This document shows, in pieces, positions 49,457 to 60,990 of a stretch of 64,000 nucleotides of DNA. Below the pieces are notes generated by a model. It was given only the letters and a program-made list of their open reading frames with translations. It was not told the DNA's origin and did no database searches. Position 1 is the stretch's first letter; every line of letters begins with the position of its first letter. Origin of the DNA: a virus; IMG/VR virus record IMGVR_UViG_3300037264_001603, positions 1 to 64,000 of that record. One strand, given 5' to 3'. The position numbers were made by a program, and so were the translations under genes.

Positions 49457-51289
49457 TTGCAGAGTCTGCTGGAAGACTTAGACTTTCTTAACCAATCAGA
49501 TGAACTCGTAGAGTTCTATCGACAATATCCTGAAATCGCAGCCGAAGACCTTCTAAGAGTCAAACTTAGTTCGATTCAAAAGGTAGTCTTGAGGTCCATG
49601 TGGTTTCGGGACTATGTTATGGCCATCATGTGTCGAGGCGCTGGTAAGACTTTCTTACTGGCTGTCTTTTCGTGTTTGAAGGCCATGCTCTACCCAGGAC
49701 ATCGCGTCGGACTTCTAGCCCCTACCTTTCGTCAGAGCAAGTACATCTTTGACGAATGTGATAAGCTCTATCATCGCTCCCCCGTCCTGCAAGCGGCCTG
49801 CGAGCGTAAACCCACCTCGGCCTCGGACAACTGCTACCTCCGCTTCAAAGCCGTAGGCACCAAGAACCCCTCCGTCATTCAAGCCATCCCCCTCGGCGAC
49901 GGTACCAAGATCAGAGGTTCGCGTTTCTTCACCATCCTCTGCGACGAGTTTCCTCACATTCCAGACGAGATCTTCAACATGGTTATCCGTCCAATGGCGG
50001 CTACTCTTGCCGACCCGATGGAGAATGTAGAGAAGGTTTCTCGCCAGAAAGAGCTGTTGGAACGAGGTTTGATTACCCAAGCAGACATTGATGCTGACAC
50101 CGCCACCAACCAAATCATCATTACGTCATCTGGTTACTTTACCTTTAACCACATGTACAAGTTGTATTGCGCTTACAAAGAGGAAATGAGGACGGGGAAT
50201 GGTAAGTATGCCGTTTTTCGTGTGCCTTACTGGCTTTTACCAGACGGATTTTTGGATAAGAAGGCAATTGAAGCTGCCAAACGAGAAATGTCTAGCCTTG
50301 AGTTTAGGATGGAGTATGAAGCAGCCTTCATTCCTGACACAGATGCGTTCTATAAGGCTTCCCTATTAGAAGCATGTTCGCGTACAGGGTTCTCTACACG
50401 GGTTGCGGGCGAGCATGGAAAGACTTATTGTTTAGGTATAGACCCAGCCAGAAGTGAAGACTCCTTCGCTATCGCTATCGCAGAACTTGGCGTCCCAGCT
50501 AAAATCGTCCATGCCCTAGAACTTCAGAAGCAGCCCTTCCCTAGAATGGCGGAGCTGATTGAAGATCTATGCGATGCATTCAACGTTCAACACATTTACA
50601 TGGATGCTGGCGGTGGTGGATTAGCCATCAAAGACATTCTTGCAGAAAACAATCGCGGCCATCGAGCAGGCCCAATTTTGGATCCCGAGGATGAGGCCCA
50701 TCAGGTCAAATCCGGAAGACACATCATAAAGATGTGCAACTTCGGAGTAGATTTCATCTCGGAGTCCAACTTTGCGGCACTAAGACTGCTTGAGAACCGC
50801 GATTTGCTTTTTCCGAGTGTGCCTGTTGGAGATACTCCCACCCCCGCTGAAGAAGAGGGTTGGGATAAGATCCAGGAAATGAAGCGCCAGATGCAGATGA
50901 TCTCGCTTTCGGAGACTCCCACTGGTAAGTATCATTTCGATGTACCCAAAGGCGAAGGACACGGGAAGCAGAAGAAGGATTTGTATACATCCTTCATGCT
51001 GGCTGCCCGTTGTGTATATGACCATTTGTGGGCACATGAACTTGCGGAGAGTGTTCTCTTCCACGGGGGCGTACTTAGGCCCCGGGAAGATCGAGCTTCT
51101 CGTCCCGTCATCAACTCTGATGGCGTTCCTGTCGATGATGCTATTCCCCAGGTGATTAGGGATAAACTGGAAATGGCACAAGATCCTGTCGGCTTCAAAC
51201 AGCGTTTGATGCAAAGGGCATTCAATAAGCGTACCTTGTTGACTAGTCCCTACGCCGTCTTGAAACCGGTTCCCAAGAAGAAGAAATAG
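49457..51289 (+). CDS. terminase large subunit
   Basis: RGAGKT, APTFRQS, IRGSR, CDEF, EYEAAF, LGIDPA, DAGGGG, KKDLY. Confidence 0.92.
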   Translation: MQSLLEDLDFLNQSDELVEFYRQYPEIAAEDLLRVKLSSIQKVVLRSMWFRDYVMAIMCRGAGKTFLLAVFSCLKAMLYPGHRVGLLAPTFRQSKYIFDECDKLYHRSPVLQAACERKPTSASDNCYLRFKAVGTKNPSVIQAIPLGDGTKIRGSRFFTILCDEFPHIPDEIFNMVIRPMAATLADPMENVEKVSRQKELLERGLITQADIDADTATNQIIITSSGYFTFNHMYKLYCAYKEEMRTGNGKYAVFRVPYWLLPDGFLDKKAIEAAKREMSSLEFRMEYEAAFIPDTDAFYKASLLEACSRTGFSTRVAGEHGKTYCLGIDPARSEDSFAIAIAELGVPAKIVHALELQKQPFPRMAELIEDLCDAFNVQHIYMDAGGGGLAIKDILAENNRGHRAGPILDPEDEAHQVKSGRHIIKMCNFGVDFISESNFAALRLLENRDLLFPSVPVGDTPTPAEEEGWDKIQEMKRQMQMISLSETPTGKYHFDVPKGEGHGKQKKDLYTSFMLAARCVYDHLWAHELAESVLFHGGVLRPREDRASRPVINSDGVPVDDAIPQVIRDKLEMAQDPVGFKQRLMQRAFNKRTLLTSPYAVLKPVPKKKK

Positions 51290-51299
51290 GAGATCTTAG

Positions 51300-53159
51300 A
51301 TGGCCGACGAAGTAAAGGACAGGTTGAACCAGGACCTCAAGAACTCTAAAGTTCTCTCCCATGAGGAAGTTAGGCCCGGTGTTCATGCGATGGAAATTGA
51401 TGTAGGCCCTAAAGGCAAGCCTGCCGCAGAGCTAGCTTATCTTGATCCTCGTCGCGGCGATACCAACCCAATGAAGTTCCACGAGGGTGGTCGAGTTATT
51501 ACCCGCGATTATGTTCGACGCGTAGACCTGGATCTTTTGAGTGGTAGGCCAGAGGTTACTCGGGCGCAACCACAACAGATTTACCAGCGCGCTATCGATT
51601 TCTACAAGGCCAAGGGCCCCTATGGTACTTGGATTGACACCCTTTCTAACTTTGCATCCAAGGGTTTCAAGAATGACATCGACGACGAAGACATCAAGCT
51701 CTTCTATGACACCTGGACTGAAGAGATCGGTTTCCAGGAGACGGTAGAGAAGATCTTCTTTGATTTCTTTCGCGTGGGAATGGTTCGTACCTTCAAGTTG
51801 GTGGGTAAGTTTGACCCCAAGCTGAAGCCAGAAAATTTTGATTCAGTAGTAGCTCGCCGCAGCCAAGCTAATCTTTCCGAGAGTTCTGAGGACATGAAGA
51901 AGCTGATTGCGTATCGAGATATTGCAGCAGCTAAGAAGATTTGGTCCAAGTCCTTTGTCCCCCTGCAGTACACCATCCTCAATCCGGTGCTGATTGAGAG
52001 TCGTGGGTCCCTATTGTTCGATCAGACTGAAACTTACCTGAAGCCCGAAGCCTTCAAGGAACTATCTGAAGTACTAAAGAATCCTTCCAAAGCCAGCCCG
52101 GAACAACGTAAGTTCATTTCCGCCCTGCCCAAGGAACTCAAGGACGCTATTCGTAAGAACCAACCTGTTCTTCTTCCCGCCGAGTTGGTAGGCAAGTGCG
52201 ACTATCGACGCCAGGACTATGAACGCTATGCGATGCCTAAAGCGGCTAGAATGTTCGATGACATGTTCTACAAGGATAAGCTCAAGGAAGCAGACTATTC
52301 CACTTTGGATGGTATCACCAATTACATCCTCAAGGTTACTGTGGGTAATGACGAGCATCCCGTAACGACCCAAGCCGAACTGGATTCTATCGCTCGACTA
52401 TTTGATACTTCCAGCAAGAGCTTCGATATCGTCTACAACCACACTCTGGAGATCGAGAAGATTACCTTCCCCGAGATTAGCCAGATTCTGGGTGTGTCCA
52501 AGTTCGAGCAGGTAAACGACGATCTGAGCCAGGCGATTGGAGTTACCCGGGCCCTGTTAGATGGGAACACTACCGGTAATGCTGAAGGTATCAAGGCTGC
52601 TCTCAAGGGATTTTCTGAGGAAGTAAACTACGCTAGACGTCAAATTCGGCGTTGGATCAATAACGAGTACGAAGAAGTTGCTCTGGCTATGGGCTTTGAT
52701 CGTTATCCAATTGTACGTTTCGACGAGAACACCCTCAAGGACGAGATCATGATGATGAGCGTCATCCAGGGTATGATCGACCGACGCATCCTCTCCTACG
52801 AGACGGGTATCGAGAAGCTAGGCTTCGACTTCTCCAACGAGTTGGCCAACTTCAAGCAAGAGAAGCCGCTGGTTCAGGACGGTATTCTGGGCATCCTTGG
52901 TTCGCCGTACAACATGAAGGCGATGCCGGCGACCGGCCCGGTTCCGGACAAGGATACTACTGTCGACGGACAGCCTACCACGGTTACCAAGAAGGATCTT
53001 ACCGACTTCCAGAACAACATCCAGAAGATGGTTGAGGAAAACATTCAGAAGGTCCAGCGTACCCCTGTGGGTACTCCGAGCGAGGGCCGCCCCCGAAAGG
53101 GACGCGGCAAGCCCCGCCAGAAGTCCACCACCCCGAACATTAAACCAACAAAACCCTAA
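51300..53159 (+). CDS. portal protein
   Basis: Follows TerL; 619 aa, helical; ILNP, VTVG, P.VRF pattern. Confidence 0.8.
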   Translation: MADEVKDRLNQDLKNSKVLSHEEVRPGVHAMEIDVGPKGKPAAELAYLDPRRGDTNPMKFHEGGRVITRDYVRRVDLDLLSGRPEVTRAQPQQIYQRAIDFYKAKGPYGTWIDTLSNFASKGFKNDIDDEDIKLFYDTWTEEIGFQETVEKIFFDFFRVGMVRTFKLVGKFDPKLKPENFDSVVARRSQANLSESSEDMKKLIAYRDIAAAKKIWSKSFVPLQYTILNPVLIESRGSLLFDQTETYLKPEAFKELSEVLKNPSKASPEQRKFISALPKELKDAIRKNQPVLLPAELVGKCDYRRQDYERYAMPKAARMFDDMFYKDKLKEADYSTLDGITNYILKVTVGNDEHPVTTQAELDSIARLFDTSSKSFDIVYNHTLEIEKITFPEISQILGVSKFEQVNDDLSQAIGVTRALLDGNTTGNAEGIKAALKGFSEEVNYARRQIRRWINNEYEEVALAMGFDRYPIVRFDENTLKDEIMMMSVIQGMIDRRILSYETGIEKLGFDFSNELANFKQEKPLVQDGILGILGSPYNMKAMPATGPVPDKDTTVDGQPTTVTKKDLTDFQNNIQKMVEENIQKVQRTPVGTPSEGRPRKGRGKPRQKSTTPNIKPTKP

Positions 53160-53195: not shown

Positions 53196-55484
53196 ATGAC
53201 TACAAAAGACGTAGGCAAGAACGCCGCAAAGAGCCTACTCGAAGAAGTTCGAGAGCTTGCTCTAGTTGTAGGCGAAGATTGTCCAGAAGGGCATCGCAAA
53301 GATCCTGGCAGCGGAAGATGCTTGCCAATGGGCGGACAAGACCACACACGATTCACGCGAAGCGTCAATAATGATGACGGCCCACAGTGGCGCGGAGAGG
53401 TCGATAAGACCAATACCACCTTTGCTTCCCAGAAAGAAGTGGCCCTTGACGCAGATGATATGGACGAACCACAAAGTTGTGCTGCCGGCACGACTTTTTC
53501 TTTTGTGCAGAGAAAATGCGTTTCCCTAGAGGAAGCCGAAGCGGAAGATAACGGAGACCTTGCGTTCGTAGAGGAAGAGGTAGCGGTGCAGCCTGAAGGC
53601 CGTCGCGATACTCCTAATCACGCATGCCCGGCCAACCAGTTCTTCGATTTCAAGCGCCGCGAGTGCATCCCTCTAAACAAGGATACTGTATTGGCATCTG
53701 AGGATGTGGACGATGAGTTCAAGAAGGTGGTAGCTACTTACTTGTCGGGACGACTAGGAGTAACCTCCCCTGATCCTATTGATGGCCACAAGCATTTGGT
53801 TACAGTAGACACCGAAGGGAGTGGTAAGTCTTCCGTTTCTTCTAGCTATCATGGGGCGGAGTCTTACTATCATTCCCATGATGTAGAAGGTTATCTAGTT
53901 CAGGATTACAAGAAAGGCGACTACCTCTCTCAGCACTTTGGACACGTTATTCCCAAGGAAATGTGGGAGCACGAGGACCACAGTTCAGACGCGGTTCCGG
54001 GCACGGCTGTGCCAGTTGCCGCCGAAGAAGCCAAGGAACTGCGCTCCAAGCAGCGAAACGCTCTTCCGGACAGCTCCTTTGGAGTTCCCGGTAAGAGGAA
54101 GTTCCCGCTAAACGACTGCGGGCATGTGCGCAATGCCATGGCTCGTTTCAATCAGGCCAAGGGCCTGACTTCCGGCGAGAAGGCGACTCTCCGCCGAAAG
54201 ATCCTATCCCGGGCCAACGCCTGTGGAATCAAAGTCACCAGCTTCGGTAAGGCAAATACTGCAGAGGAGTTTGCCGCCGTCGTACAGGAGCTAATAGCAA
54301 TGGAAACTCCAACCGAGACCCCTGTAGAGACTACAGAAACCGCTGAACGAATGAAGACATATGAGGCCGCAGCCCCGTACGCGGGACCTTGTCCTCCCGG
54401 AATGGTGTGGGATAAGATGGCCAAGAAGTGCTCCAAGGTTAGAGGTTTTGTAGAGGAACTGGCCAACCATTCTGAAATCGTTAGCAAGCAGCCAGAAGGC
54501 CGCCGAGACCCCGTTGGTTTCCAGTGCCCCGCTGGCAGCTTCTTTGACTTTACGGATCGCAAGTGTGTTCCTCTTGATCCTTCCAAGAAGCCTGGTACTA
54601 CAACTACTAAGGCCAATGAGGAAGAGGATGCCGCAAAGAACAACCTCTCCCCGGGTCCCGCAGGTCAGCCTGCTCGTCTTCCCCAGGATTGCCCAGCCGG
54701 TACTATTTGGGATGGCGATCTACGAACTTGCAAGCCTTTAGACAGCAGCAAGAAGACCAAGTCCGCTGAGGAAGAGGCTGCATTGCCGGACTTCCTGAAA
54801 AAGATGATGGAGAAGAAAAAGAACAAGAAGGCCAAGTCTGAAGAGGAAGAGTCCCAGAGTACTTCTAACGGCCCCGGTAATAAGGGTGGCCCCGGTTGCC
54901 CTGAAGGCCAGTTCATGAATCCTGTTACTAAGAAGTGCATGCCTCGCAAGGGTGCCTTCAAGGGGAAGAGTGAGACTGAGACCGCAGGACGCGAAGGCCT
55001 AACGACTGAAGTTCCGGGTAAGGTAAAGCTTCCCCAGGATTGCCCAGATGGTACCATTTGGGATGGCAACCGCCGCACCTGCACCCCACTAGATCCTAGC
55101 GACAAGAACCGCCCTAGCGGTAGTTCTGGTCCGATGAATCCCAAGAGTGTGGCTTCTCTATCCACCGCACAGTTGATTCAGGCGCTGGATGAGATTCTCA
55201 AGGAGCAGGGTGCCAAGGAGAAGAGTAGGGTTGTAGCCAAGTCTCTTCCCAACGCCGCGTTTCCTCCCTCCCTCGTCAGCGCTGCTCACCGCGCTTTGAT
55301 GCATCACAATCCAGACGTTACAGATCCCTATGATAACGCATCGGTTGATGTGGCCCGCCTGCGCAATGCTCTTTACCGCTCAGGCAAGGTAGAAGGTTTC
55401 TCGGATAAGGCTGTTGAGGATGGAATTGAACATCTTCTCTTCCACGCCCGCGAGATCGTAGAGGCCCGAACAAAAAAAGACTAA
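53196..55484 (+). CDS. modular head protein with eight C-x12-C repeats, a His-rich module and two DUF6582-like domains; probable -1 frameshift extension to 55933
   Basis: CPxG...C repeats; LPDSSFG..RKFPL...HVRNAMARF; LPNAAF...LRNAL. Confidence 0.75.
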   Translation: MTTKDVGKNAAKSLLEEVRELALVVGEDCPEGHRKDPGSGRCLPMGGQDHTRFTRSVNNDDGPQWRGEVDKTNTTFASQKEVALDADDMDEPQSCAAGTTFSFVQRKCVSLEEAEAEDNGDLAFVEEEVAVQPEGRRDTPNHACPANQFFDFKRRECIPLNKDTVLASEDVDDEFKKVVATYLSGRLGVTSPDPIDGHKHLVTVDTEGSGKSSVSSSYHGAESYYHSHDVEGYLVQDYKKGDYLSQHFGHVIPKEMWEHEDHSSDAVPGTAVPVAAEEAKELRSKQRNALPDSSFGVPGKRKFPLNDCGHVRNAMARFNQAKGLTSGEKATLRRKILSRANACGIKVTSFGKANTAEEFAAVVQELIAMETPTETPVETTETAERMKTYEAAAPYAGPCPPGMVWDKMAKKCSKVRGFVEELANHSEIVSKQPEGRRDPVGFQCPAGSFFDFTDRKCVPLDPSKKPGTTTTKANEEEDAAKNNLSPGPAGQPARLPQDCPAGTIWDGDLRTCKPLDSSKKTKSAEEEAALPDFLKKMMEKKKNKKAKSEEEESQSTSNGPGNKGGPGCPEGQFMNPVTKKCMPRKGAFKGKSETETAGREGLTTEVPGKVKLPQDCPDGTIWDGNRRTCTPLDPSDKNRPSGSSGPMNPKSVASLSTAQLIQALDEILKEQGAKEKSRVVAKSLPNAAFPPSLVSAAHRALMHHNPDVTDPYDNASVDVARLRNALYRSGKVEGFSDKAVEDGIEHLLFHAREIVEARTKKD
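54678..55047 (+). repeat. internal duplication in the Cys-repeat gene
   Basis: CTTCCCCAGGATTGCCCAG identical at 54678 and 55029 (LPQDCPxGTIWDG units). Confidence 0.85.
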
Positions 55485-55536
55485 GCGGATGGATTGATGA
55501 AGGTCAGATTACCAACCCCGCTGAGTTTCATCCGCT
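55472..55536 (+). promoter_or_regulatory. putative -1 ribosomal frameshift signal
   Basis: A AAA AAA, then 5 nt, then stem AGCGGATG/CATCCGCT. Confidence 0.7.
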
Positions 55537-55933
55537 GTGCCAACCCCAGGAAGTGTTTGATCCCAAGTCCGGCTCTTGCATCCCCGTCACTAATGTGAAG
55601 GGAGCTGATCCAGCGGGTACGCTGGAATGTCCGCCGGGCTACGTCCTGGACGAAAGTTTGGGCATGTGTCGTCCGGACGATCCGGTGAACACGGCGTCTA
55701 TGTCTTCAGGAGATAACTTTGTTCGATTGGAAGATATTCCTAAAGAATTGAGACCCGACCCTAAGAAGGTCAATAAGAAGAAAGAGACAGCTGCCCCCTT
55801 CAGACCTGACGCTAAAATGGAACGCTGCATTCGTGATGTAAAAGCCAATTTGGGTAACAAGAATCCCAAATTCAAAGGACAATCTGTTAAGAGTGCAGCG
55901 ATAGCAATTTGTAGATCGCGCCTCAAAGAATAG
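55478..55933 (+). CDS. -1 frame extension of the Cys-repeat head protein (two more repeats and a C-terminal C...AIAIC module)
   Basis: Open from the slippery site: RLSGWIDEGQITNPAEFHPLCQPQEVFDPKSGSC... Confidence 0.7.
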   Translation, partial: RLSGWIDEGQITNPAEFHPLCQPQEVFDPKSGSCIPVTNVKGADPAGTLECPPGYVLDESLGMCRPDDPVNTASMSSGDNFVRLEDIPKELRPDPKKVNKKKETAAPFRPDAKMERCIRDVKANLGNKNPKFKGQSVKSAAIAICRSRLKE

Positions 55934-56445: not shown

Positions 56446-57822
56446 ATGATGACAACAGAGAACAAGGTCAGAGTCTATGCTCCGATTCAAGTCCAGCAGG
56501 AAGTGGAGCTGGCAGCAGCGGAGAAAGCGGCAGTTCTAACTTTTCCAGACGAAAAACAGGGCGATCTTCAGTATATTCGCTCCATTCTAGTATCTGCCGG
56601 TACTAACAAGAACGGTGCCCATTTCTTGCCTTCCGAGATGATGCGGGCACACAATACCATCGTGCATAAGGCTATTGATATTGAGCACGAAGAGGATAAG
56701 GTTATTGGGCATATCTACGAATGTGCTTTCCTCTACAAGGATGGTTCCCAGTTTGATCCGACCAAGGTAATGGCGGAGTTCCAGGAAACCTCCAAGAATC
56801 CTGATGATCTTGATATGGACATTGCTGTAGCGGGTGTGATACACAAGATGCGGTTCCCACAGTTGGCCGAAGAGATTTTCAAGGGCGACTGGAAGGTCAG
56901 CATGGAATGCTACTTCAAGGATTTCGATATCAAGATTGGCAATCAGATCATTACTCGGTCCGAAGCGCAGGCTTTGGGCTATAACCCCGACGACCTCATC
57001 GGGGGCTTTGTAAAGGTAGTCGCTGGTACGAAGGCGCTAGGCAAGCACTTCGTTGCCCGAGTACTTCGAAACATTACCTTCAGTGGTATGGGTATCGTCA
57101 AGAACCCAGCCAACCCCCACTCCATCATTATGGAAACTGCTGCTCATCGTGAGCAACTGGAAAAGGGAGAGCAGGTAGTTGATTTGGAGCACATCGATAA
57201 CCTCCGAGGTCATAAAATCGAACTCTCTTCCGCAAAGGAAGATGAGCCAAAGGAGAAGGCTGCTGCCGTAAAGGTGGTCTCCGAAGATGGAACTATGCAA
57301 GCAGAAGAGCAAATCTACATCGAATTAGACAACGAAACCGGCGGCATCAAGCGCGTACTTACCGTTGGCGGTAAGGAAGACGCAGGTCTTCGCTGGTCTG
57401 GCCCTGGTACTGGTGGGCCTGGCAGCATTACCTCTTATCCTGATGAGCTTTGTAAGAGCTTCAAGAAGAGAGTAACCAAGTTCAATGCATTGGATCAGTC
57501 CGAGGCACAGGTAGTTCATGAGCACTGGTGTGCTCTGTTCGAAGAGTCCTGCCCGGTTATTGGTGCTACGGCCAAGGCCCCGGAATGTCTACGCAACGTT
57601 CGTAACCGAACTACGCGGGACGAGGCTGATAACACTCTGACCAAGACGGTACGGGACCATGTTTCCAAGGGACCGGCCAACACTTTCACTACGACCCTGC
57701 ACCAGCAATCTGCTTCTACCGGAGATCGCAAGGAGCAGGTGTCTCGTATCCGTACAGAAGCAGAAGCACTTAGAAATTCTCTTCGATCTTTTGTTGCGGC
57801 CGAAAAAAAAACTTTAGAATAA
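56446..57822 (+). CDS. prohead maturation protease; probable -1 frameshift extension to 58139
   Basis: NKNG..F, IDIEH...IGHI, VSMEC, FSGMGIVKNPA; located between portal and scaffold. Confidence 0.78.
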   Translation: MMTTENKVRVYAPIQVQQEVELAAAEKAAVLTFPDEKQGDLQYIRSILVSAGTNKNGAHFLPSEMMRAHNTIVHKAIDIEHEEDKVIGHIYECAFLYKDGSQFDPTKVMAEFQETSKNPDDLDMDIAVAGVIHKMRFPQLAEEIFKGDWKVSMECYFKDFDIKIGNQIITRSEAQALGYNPDDLIGGFVKVVAGTKALGKHFVARVLRNITFSGMGIVKNPANPHSIIMETAAHREQLEKGEQVVDLEHIDNLRGHKIELSSAKEDEPKEKAAAVKVVSEDGTMQAEEQIYIELDNETGGIKRVLTVGGKEDAGLRWSGPGTGGPGSITSYPDELCKSFKKRVTKFNALDQSEAQVVHEHWCALFEESCPVIGATAKAPECLRNVRNRTTRDEADNTLTKTVRDHVSKGPANTFTTTLHQQSASTGDRKEQVSRIRTEAEALRNSLRSFVAAEKKTLE

Positions 57823-59432: not shown

Positions 59433-59903
59433 ATGGTGTTCATCCCACGAGACCCTGTTGTTCAGAACCAATTCCTTGTTCATGATACGAGCAAGGGTGA
59501 CGGTACTGAATCCGCAGGTTGTGTGGTTTATCTTTCGGGAGATCAGCTTGTAGCGTGTGTAAGTGGTTCTGGCAATGCCCCGTACGGGTTTCTTATGCAG
59601 AACGTCAAGGCCGAGTCCTCCGCACATCCGACAGGTTTCCGACTCCCAGGCGATCTGGGCAGCTCTGATGCCTTTAGTGGCGATCCTGTTGCGGTTGCTC
59701 ACCTTGGTGTTTATGACACCACTTTCTATGTTTCCGCGGCTTATACAGCTGGCACGAATTTGACCGTTGGACCTAATGGTAAAGTATGCCCCACGGGCAA
59801 CGGAGCCCAGGTCAATTCGACGGTAGTAGGCGTTGCGCAAAATTCCCTGACTGCTGCTCAAGCAGCTGCAGGCGAAAAACTGCGAGTCAAACTCTCAGTC
59901 TAA
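59433..59903 (+). CDS. head decoration/cement protein
   Basis: Small beta protein directly before MCP. Confidence 0.72.
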   Translation: MVFIPRDPVVQNQFLVHDTSKGDGTESAGCVVYLSGDQLVACVSGSGNAPYGFLMQNVKAESSAHPTGFRLPGDLGSSDAFSGDPVAVAHLGVYDTTFYVSAAYTAGTNLTVGPNGKVCPTGNGAQVNSTVVGVAQNSLTAAQAAAGEKLRVKLSV

Positions 59904-59922: not shown

Positions 59923-60990
59923 ATGGACAAGCAAAAGCTTGCTGAACTTTTTAAGGCAACTGCTGCATTTGACACTCCTGAGGGTGTCGAAGCATACAAG
60001 GCCTTCGCACAGGCACTAACCGTGCCCATTCTCCAGGAAATTCGAGACGCATCCATTATGCGACAGCTCTTCGCTGTTGAGCGACTCGCTCCTGGTGCTC
60101 AGGCCGTCTATCCAGTTGCTGACGACTTCGAGGTACCGGTGTTCGTTCTACCTGGCCTCGGATACATCGCACAGAACTTCGTCGAAGGTGTTGGTGAGGA
60201 AGTATACGTTCCTACCTTCTCCATCTCTGCATCCGCAGACTGGAAGGTAACCTACGCCCGAGATTCCCGCATTGACATTCCGGAGAGAGCAGCCCGCAAT
60301 ACTGCTCGTGCAATTGCAGACTTCGAGGAAGAGTCCGGTTGGCGCGTAATCGTGCCCGGCGGTACTACTAACTTCTCGGGTCAGGGTCTTCTCGGCCCAC
60401 GCAATGCTCCGATTTATCAGGTTCCTGCCGGTGCAACCGGTGAGAAGTTCCTTTCCAAGGAATTGATCAACCTGATGATGGTCGGTATGAAGCGAGTTCG
60501 CCGATCCCTAACTGATCTCTACATCTCCCCTGAGGACGCCGCTGACATTCGTGAGTGGACTGATACCCAGGTCGATCCTATCACCCGCCGAGAGATTTTC
60601 CAGGCTGCTGGTATGGGTACGGTTTGGAACGTCAATCTCCACGAGGTCTTCCAACTCGGTGCCACTGGTCGATTCAACATCAATCAGAACGGTGCTTCGT
60701 TTGGTATCTTCCAGGTTGATGGCGCTGGCGATTTCAACGACTATTCCCCAACCAACATTAACACTGTTGACGCGAATGGTAACGTTACCACCGCTGGTGA
60801 GACTCAGGTTTGGGGTTTCGATCTCTCTGTTAATGACTCTCTCGTCATGCCTATTCGCAAGGAGTACGAGGCCCACGACGATCCGACTCTTCTACGACAG
60901 CAGAAGCAAGGTTTCTTCGGCTGGGAGGAAGTTGGTTTCGCTCTACTCGATTCTCGAATGGTATCTCTTGGTGTCATCGACCGATCGTAA
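59923..60990 (+). CDS. major capsid protein (HK97 fold)
   Basis: 355 aa; position, strong SD, GFFGWEEVGFALLD C-terminal motif; followed by terminator. Confidence 0.87.
   Translation: MDKQKLAELFKATAAFDTPEGVEAYKAFAQALTVPILQEIRDASIMRQLFAVERLAPGAQAVYPVADDFEVPVFVLPGLGYIAQNFVEGVGEEVYVPTFSISASADWKVTYARDSRIDIPERAARNTARAIADFEEESGWRVIVPGGTTNFSGQGLLGPRNAPIYQVPAGATGEKFLSKELINLMMVGMKRVRRSLTDLYISPEDAADIREWTDTQVDPITRREIFQAAGMGTVWNVNLHEVFQLGATGRFNINQNGASFGIFQVDGAGDFNDYSPTNINTVDANGNVTTAGETQVWGFDLSVNDSLVMPIRKEYEAHDDPTLLRQQKQGFFGWEEVGFALLDSRMVSLGVIDRS

Follow-up and report, generated by a model that had tools for sequence, protein, structure and literature searches.

The DNA considered here (the window) comprises the first 64 kb (64,000 nucleotides) of the 77-kb IMG/VR virus record IMGVR_UViG_3300037264_001603, for which CheckV estimates a completeness of 26%. 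The open reading frame (ORF) that lies directly after the portal gene, here called ORF1, very probably ends in a programmed −1 ribosomal frameshift site; comparison with related sequences predicts two products of the gene, a form of 762 amino acids (aa) and an extended form of 912 aa. Most ribosomes would decode Lys760, Lys761 and Asp762 and terminate at the TAA stop codon, yielding the 762-aa protein. A fraction would slip back by one base, with the P- and A-site tRNAs on AAA AAA re-pairing at A_AAA_AAA, aided by a stem-loop of about 10 base pairs (bp) that starts 5 nucleotides (nt) downstream; these ribosomes would continue with AGA CTA AGC and read the −1 frame to position 55930. The resulting long form would gain two C-x12-C hairpins and a terminal two-Cys helical hairpin. 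With its heptamer, 5-nt spacer and stem-loop, the signal is a textbook bacterial-type −1 site. The mechanism is thus a known one; the novelty lies in the gene family, in how deeply the site is conserved, in the changing cargo of the extension and in a second site nearby.

The 3′ end of ORF1 (55470-55484) reads ACA AAA AAA GAC TAA, and the gene and the elements of its junction are laid out as follows.

53196..55484, + strand: ORF1, the 0 frame of 762 aa (P0001), comprising eight repeats of the C-x12-C hairpin, a DUF6582 domain and, at the C-terminus, a helical domain that is conserved
55472..55478, + strand: A_AAA_AAA, the slippery heptamer, which is in phase with ORF1 and made up of the third base of Thr759 and the codons of Lys760 and Lys761
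55479..55483, + strand: 5-nt spacer GACTA, read from the window sequence
55484..55493, + strand: 5′ arm of the stem, AGCGGATGGA
55527..55536, + strand: 3′ arm of the stem, TTCATCCGCT, within the extension codons for F-H-P-L
55478..55933, + strand: −1 frame extension of 151 codons and a TAG stop, without a usable start codon of its own

The last two bases of the spacer, together with base one of the stem, make up the 0-frame stop (TAA, 55482-55484). In the stem, AGCGGATG (55484-91) and CATCCGCT (55529-36) are exact complements, and the pairs G55492.U55528 and A55493-U55527 lengthen the helix to 10 bp; it begins within the 5-9 nt past the heptamer that are canonical for −1 sites. In the −1 frame, the last stop upstream of the heptamer, at 55427-29, precedes it by 14 codons, and the next is the TAG at 55931-33. 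Its translation, RLSGWIDEGQITNPAEFHPLCQPQEVFDPKSGSC...CPPGYVLDESLGMC, contains two C-x12-C units, of which ORF1 itself has eight copies; entered at the heptamer, the frame reads RLSGWIDEGQITNPAEFHPL-CQPQEVFDPKSGSC-...-CPPGYVLDESLGMC. The first ATG, GTG or TTG in this frame is the GTG at 55553, and the first Cys codon (55538-40) lies upstream of it. The predicted trans-frame product amounts to 761 + 151 = 912 aa, with the junction peptide ...EIVEARTKK-RLSGWIDEGQITNPAEFHPLCQPQEVFDPK (...EARTKK-RLSGW...). The initial annotation, made from the letters of the window, had described the in-phase A7 heptamer, a stem 5 nt past it, a −1 frame closed about 15 codons upstream and open to 55933, two further Cys repeats that begin ahead of the GTG, and isoforms of 762 and about 912 aa, and all of these withstood re-examination, the stem gaining two pairs in the process. 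Only two in-phase X_XXY_YYZ heptamers occur in ORF1, and the whole window holds only five runs of A or T with a length of at least 7. On the + strand, 30 ORFs are followed by a −1 frame that stays open for at least 60 codons past their stop; an in-phase heptamer within the overlap is limited to ORF1 and the ORF at 56446..57822.

A search of 5.8 billion proteins retrieved 105 homologs of ORF1 with 38-86% identity. All 104 homologs with an intact C-terminal region end at one and the same position, in ...KK[DSEA] or ...GK[NSA]; two truncated entries, P0105 and P0106, lack the C-terminal region. The DNA of relatives, drawn from viral, genome and metagenome collections, supplied 81 junctions, 65 of them distinct, and in 64 of these 65 an in-phase X_XXY_YYZ heptamer lies at most 2 codons from the stop. 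Of these heptamers, 48 are AAAAAAA and 16 are GGGAAAA, with a second, overlapping heptamer in three of the GGGAAAA cases; the stop falls exactly one codon past the heptamer in 59 of the 65. The −1 frame is open for at least 54 codons past the stop in all 65 junctions, and for up to 291 codons in complete loci; the +1 frame is mostly closed within a few codons. Such a switch between two slippery sequences, with phase and position kept, is the pattern that sequence comparison would lead one to expect of a ribosomal slip site. Codon usage adds to this picture. In codon alignments of 45 sequences, with codon identity taken where the residue is the same, each of the 45 has AAA at both Lys positions of the heptamer (pairwise codon identity 1.00), against a mean codon identity of 0.45 nearby and of 0.41-0.70 for other Lys codons. 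Elsewhere in the gene AAG is the commoner Lys codon, the window having 10 AAA and 56 AAG and the relatives 600 and 2558 (about 19% AAA, 81% AAG); AAA AAA is therefore held by selection against the codon preference of the gene.

The stem downstream of the heptamer is likewise found beyond the window. In the clade to which the window belongs (31 sequences), the 10-bp helix is 90% paired; sliding the 3′ arm by 1-3 columns lowers this to 38-56%. The 15 sequences of a second clade carry another helix in the corresponding position, GCRCUGWGGG / CCCWCAGYGC, which is 88.5% paired compared with at most 51% in the slid controls; here two pairs change on both sides, and the covariation score exceeds that of all 500 shuffles. 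For alignment A3 the shuffle control was not significant. With both clades taken together, 38 of 48 sequences have a minimum-energy fold whose outer helix starts at most 5 nt from the first base of the stop and spans at least 38 nt, a placement seen in 8.1% of 3870 control windows from the same genes. The median stability of the stem across the relatives lies at the 9th percentile of same-gene windows. The case for a conserved stem rests on the slid controls, the two helix sequence families and the positional enrichment. An alternative 3′ partner, CCGCU at 55518-22, which pairs with AGCGG in the minimum-energy fold of the window, was discarded since this pairing is not conserved in relatives. 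In the L001-type clade (L001, L002, L003, L055, L056, L065-L074 and L091-L095), the 60 nt after the stop are near-invariant (AGAATCGGGGATCGAATAGGTCYCGCTGG...), and a 6-bp hairpin lies 13 nt downstream of the heptamer. An upstream Shine-Dalgarno-like stimulator as in dnaX was looked for by eye among the relatives; some clades have GAGG or GGAG 7 nt upstream and others lack it, and no such stimulator is claimed.

The extension itself behaves as a protein-coding sequence that is entered from ORF1. Searches with tblastn found it in relatives at 46-50% identity (E 2e-34 to 3e-37), and a homologous −1 ORF is kept in all 65 distinct junctions. Protein conservation sets in with the first codon after the junction, (R/I/K)LSGW.DEGQITNP.EFHP(L/Q)C..., and the alignment of 41 extension sequences has 19 invariant columns. 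Between the last upstream −1 stop and the HPxC motif, 44 of the 65 junctions have no ATG, GTG or TTG. An exhaustive HMMER scan of 1.84 billion representatives returned only 20 extension-related proteins; 16 of these are fragments, 57-223 aa in length, whose start lies within the extension, and three longer proteins with Cys repeats match the hairpin region only. Gene callers therefore mostly miss the extension ORF. An in-frame fusion without a slippery site, which would have told against a frameshift, was sought among the relatives; neither the search of longer proteins nor the HMMER scan found an extension fused in frame to an ORF1 homolog. In all, comparison supports the programmed −1 frameshift that the initial annotation had proposed: the heptamer is present in 64 of 65 distinct relatives and the −1 ORF in all, with the stem conserved in two clades and not in the L001 type.

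The frame break could in principle be an artefact, because A7 runs are error-prone on some sequencing platforms and a true A8 would create one continuous ORF of 912 codons. Such an error is next to impossible: the break recurs in 65 distinct, independently assembled junctions, including those with GGGAAAA that have no long homopolymer, the 104 homologs with an intact C-terminal region share one stop position, and no in-frame protein is on record. An A8 was also sought in contigs of other libraries, and what they contain is A7, without an indel: it stands in one contig assembled from DNA, which is probably the source, and in contigs that came, in a separate study, from three metatranscriptomic libraries, hence in four libraries from two studies. 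These RNA-library contigs also speak against slippage by RNA polymerase, which would add one A within the A7 run to produce A8 transcripts encoding the long form in one frame. The homopolymeric nature of the site would suit this explanation, contigs are unable to reveal minor variants, and at the second site discussed below a conserved run of at least 8 A (A9 in the window) makes polymerase slippage more plausible. Yet slippage of this kind would be expected at homopolymers of about 8-9 or more that are kept in relatives, and the run at the ORF1 junction is A7; GGGAAAA (A4-A5), found in 16 of the 65 relatives, is too short for the polymerase to slip. The motif is, moreover, strictly phase-locked and followed by a stem at ribosomal spacing, and we consider transcriptional slippage very unlikely at this junction.

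Overlapping genes are common in dense phage genomes, and with 30 of the 77 ORFs in the window preceding an open −1 frame, the downstream ORF could be a separate gene, translated from the GTG at 55553, from a non-canonical start or by termination-reinitiation at the TAA. Most members of the L001 clade (L001 itself not among them) have an ATG about 40 codons into the extension that could serve such a gene. However, protein conservation begins at the junction, upstream of any start codon, and 44 of 65 junctions have no ATG, GTG or TTG ahead of HPxC; initiation at GTG 55553 would cut the first hairpin, and the AGGAA belonging to this GTG abuts it with zero spacing. Since two separate genes would also leave the absolute conservation of AAA AAA unexplained, this arrangement is highly improbable. 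There is an even more minute chance that the downstream frame is an unexpressed, decaying remnant of a once-fused gene, as might be suggested by the short extensions that lack the terminal module in L010 and L042 (70 codons) and in L017 (80 codons); the extension is nevertheless kept open, and its protein sequence, 50-87% identical across the family, has Cys, His and Pro positions that do not vary.

Several observations weigh against programmed frameshifting at the junction or against parts of the signal. One relative, L089 (481-565), has no heptamer and carries GGTAAAA in its place. It reads TTG GTA AAA AGC TAA, and its close relatives L017, L076 and L096 have CTG or TTG followed by GGA AAA AGC; L089 may be a genuine variant in which slippage in the A site suffices, or it may reflect a sequencing error. 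Position Z of the heptamer is A in every relative and not G, which is the most efficient base in E. coli; an invariant A would be in keeping with a host in which AAG is decoded by a tRNA-Lys(CUU) of its own. The evidence for A7 is at the level of contigs, in which minor A8 transcripts would not show. As for the stem, covariation in the clade of the window is slight (A-U, G.U and G-C at one pair), and RNAalifold found only 2, 1 and 0 pairs with changes on both sides within the clades. The stability of the stem in the window is ordinary, with z = −0.5 for the single-sequence fold of 55479-55560, at the 25th percentile of same-gene windows. The codons occupied by the two arms are conserved, such that part of the pairing may ride on constraint at the protein level, and the L001-type clade (14 junctions) has no helix at 5-6 nt spacing. 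With these points taken into account, what the sequences show is the anatomy of the signal, its conservation, the conservation of the extension at the protein level and the lack of independent initiation; that slippage takes place on the ribosome, its efficiency, the fixed ratio of isoforms put forward in the initial annotation and a role of both isoforms in head assembly are inferred.

The content of the extension was explored by structure prediction with AlphaFold2 (41 sequences; mean predicted local distance difference test score, pLDDT, of 70), which places beta hairpins at both C-x12-C units and a helical hairpin, holding the invariant residues Cys117 and Cys145, at the C-terminus.

55538..55579, + strand: ninth C-x12-C hairpin (CQPQEVFDPKSGSC), with predicted strands at extension residues 25-28 and 33-36
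55628..55669, + strand: tenth C-x12-C hairpin (CPPGYVLDESLGMC), with predicted strands at residues 55-58 and 63-66
55811..55924, + strand: terminal two-Cys helical hairpin (KMERCI...AIAICRSRLK), with predicted helices at residues 112-128 and 134-149 and a pLDDT of about 80-87

A sequence search of the PDB gave no match to the extension, Foldseek gave none at E ≤0.001, no Pfam domain was detected beyond the hairpin matches, and the ESM Atlas returned only unnamed viral clusters with scores of at most 0.84. The terminal module (KMERCI...AIAICRSRLKE) recurs as two in-frame tandem copies at the C-terminus (residues 724-822) of P0126, an unrelated portal-type protein of 822 aa (phrog_9232, E 9e-43) that also weakly matches a family of minor head proteins. 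Because it is also present in this unrelated protein, the module is, to judge by sequence, mobile and associated with head or portal proteins. In two relatives, L008 (5873-6751) and L022 (6095-6841), the extension instead carries a ferritin/Dps-like domain (PF00210, E 1e-21 and 1.4e-18), and P0077 has such a domain in its 0-frame body (residues 504-643). A ferritin-like domain on a protein of the head module recalls, by analogy, encapsulin cargo.

ORF1 lies in a recognizable head module, the other members of which are listed in gene order; two small ORFs separate ORF1 from the 458-aa gene.

49457-51289: large terminase (TerL), the first gene of the order
51300-53159: portal protein, directly before ORF1
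56446-57822: 458-aa protein without a family match
After the 458-aa gene and before the cement-like gene: 294-aa protein
59433-59903: cement-like protein
59923-60990: major capsid protein (phrog_2522 and a sub-threshold Phage_capsid match)

The initial annotation had spoken of a head protein, and the position of ORF1 among TerL, portal, cement and capsid genes agrees with this; the assignment of its product to the head module is one by gene order only. The protein has a DUF6582 match above the Pfam gathering score (32.5 bits against a cut-off of 27.3, residues 290-348), and a literature search found no mention of DUF6582. The DUF6582 region of P0001 (ALPDSSFGVPGKRKFPL...VRNAMARFNQ, 290-348) and its C-terminal domain (LPNAAFPPSL...RLRNALYR, 680-750) have the motif LP(D/N)xAF...R(V/L)RNAxxR in common, and may be two copies of one helical module. 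Other identities for ORF1 were considered and rejected. CBM_14, the six-Cys peritrophin-A chitin-binding family, reaches a summed score of 61 bits, yet no single stretch passes, and the matches span only profile positions 28-49 of 53, which correspond to the CPxG...C hairpin. A major capsid protein of the T7 10B type is at odds with the lack of a capsid match and with the major capsid gene at 59923-60990, and a tail assembly chaperone of the G/GT type with the location between portal and capsid genes and the lack of a chaperone family match.

A blastn search with 53196-55933 against 50,697 GenBank phage records gave no match, and no tRNA genes were found within the window. Contigs of relatives are up to about 300 kb long, and the source virus is therefore probably a very large phage from sediment. 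Two relatives, L033 (WJJK01000045.1) and L034 (JAZFSF010000099.1), are binned in archaeal metagenome-assembled genomes (Altiarchaeales and Bathyarchaeia), which could be due to mis-binning of phage contigs or could be a hint at the host.

The second −1 site of the window lies in the 458-aa gene. This ORF (56446..57822) ends GAA AAA AAA ACT TTA GAA TAA, with a run of nine A at 57803-11, an in-phase A_AAA_AAA at 57804-10 and a 109-codon −1 ORF that continues to 58139. All 42 distinct related loci retain a run of at least 8 A with a stop close by and, invariably in the −1 frame, a homologous ORF of 50-96% identity; the A9 run shows no indel in the RNA-library contigs. Because A9-A10 is conserved here, transcriptional slippage is a live alternative at this site. 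Searches of NCBIfam and of PDB sequences with the 458-aa protein gave no match.

A speculative and rather unlikely extrapolation of these findings is that the frameshift could set the stoichiometry of an internal head polyprotein located close to the portal, in phages with genomes of about 300 kb. The extension would then be a swappable cargo slot, filled with the two-Cys helical hairpin in most relatives and with the Dps/ferritin-like domain in L008 and L022, and the second −1 site in the neighbouring 458-aa gene would place two head-assembly ratios under recoding. If this were true, a set fraction of molecules would carry cargo into the capsid in the manner of Gag-Pol. Irrespective of this scenario, the junction adds, on comparative evidence alone, a well-supported recoding event to an unannotated family, the DUF6582/Cys-hairpin protein of uncultured sediment phages. 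The 151-codon extension is overlooked or cut short by gene callers, the 20 recorded proteins related to it comparing with more than 100 homologs of ORF1; joined features would set the annotation right throughout the clade. With a conserved −1 site in each of two adjacent head-module genes and with variable cargo, the clade offers a natural set for studying the ratios of phage structural proteins, and it should be useful for relating the choice of heptamer (AAA at Z despite the AAG preference) to the tRNA-Lys repertoire of the host.

The site can be compared with several well-characterized recoding systems. G_GGA_AAG and A_AAA_AAG are among the highly shift-prone heptamers in E. coli (PMC5009743). 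With E. coli dnaX (A_AAA_AAG and a 3′ stem-loop) and the IS3-family transposases, the ORF1 junction shares the lysine-codon heptamer and the stem-loop 5-6 nt downstream, the canonical bacterial −1 signal. Unlike in these systems, no conserved upstream Shine-Dalgarno-like stimulator is apparent by eye and Z is always A rather than G; the dnaX shift shortens the product, whereas the shift here lengthens it. Retroviral and totiviral Gag-Pol frameshifting offers a further parallel, in that a frameshift may set the ratio of a structural protein to a version with an extra domain (PMC5009743); this likeness is an analogy only, packaging of ORF1 into the phage head being putative.

Closer to the biology of tailed phages, the lambda G/GT genes use −1 frameshifting (PMC5009743) at G_GGA_AAG, a site conserved across tailed phages. 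As in lambda, a −1 slip near the end of a virion-morphogenesis gene would give a short major and an extended minor form, and the GGGAAAA found in relatives of ORF1 is close to the lambda heptamer (PMC5009743). Unlike G/GT, ORF1 lies between portal and capsid genes and not upstream of a tape measure gene, has no homology to G/GT, and has a conserved 3′ stem after the site and a stop one codon past it. The initial annotation had regarded a frameshift in a head gene, rather than in the usual tail-chaperone gene, as out of the ordinary; this view does not hold, as frameshift-derived C-terminal capsid extensions are established in phages T3, T7, A2, A118, A500 and PSA (PMC5009743; PMC10885494, its reference 41). 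In T7 gene 10A/10B, in T3, in the major head protein of Lactobacillus phage A2 and in the Listeria phages A118 and A500 (−1) and PSA (+1), a shift near the 3′ end gives a fraction of the molecules a C-terminal domain (PMC5009743; PMC10885494), much as is proposed here for ORF1. In contrast with the T7 10B-type capsid extensions, the shifted gene of the window does not encode the major capsid protein, and its extension is not immunoglobulin (Ig)-like but is made up of a pair of Cys hairpins plus a two-Cys helical hairpin or, in some relatives, of a ferritin-like domain.

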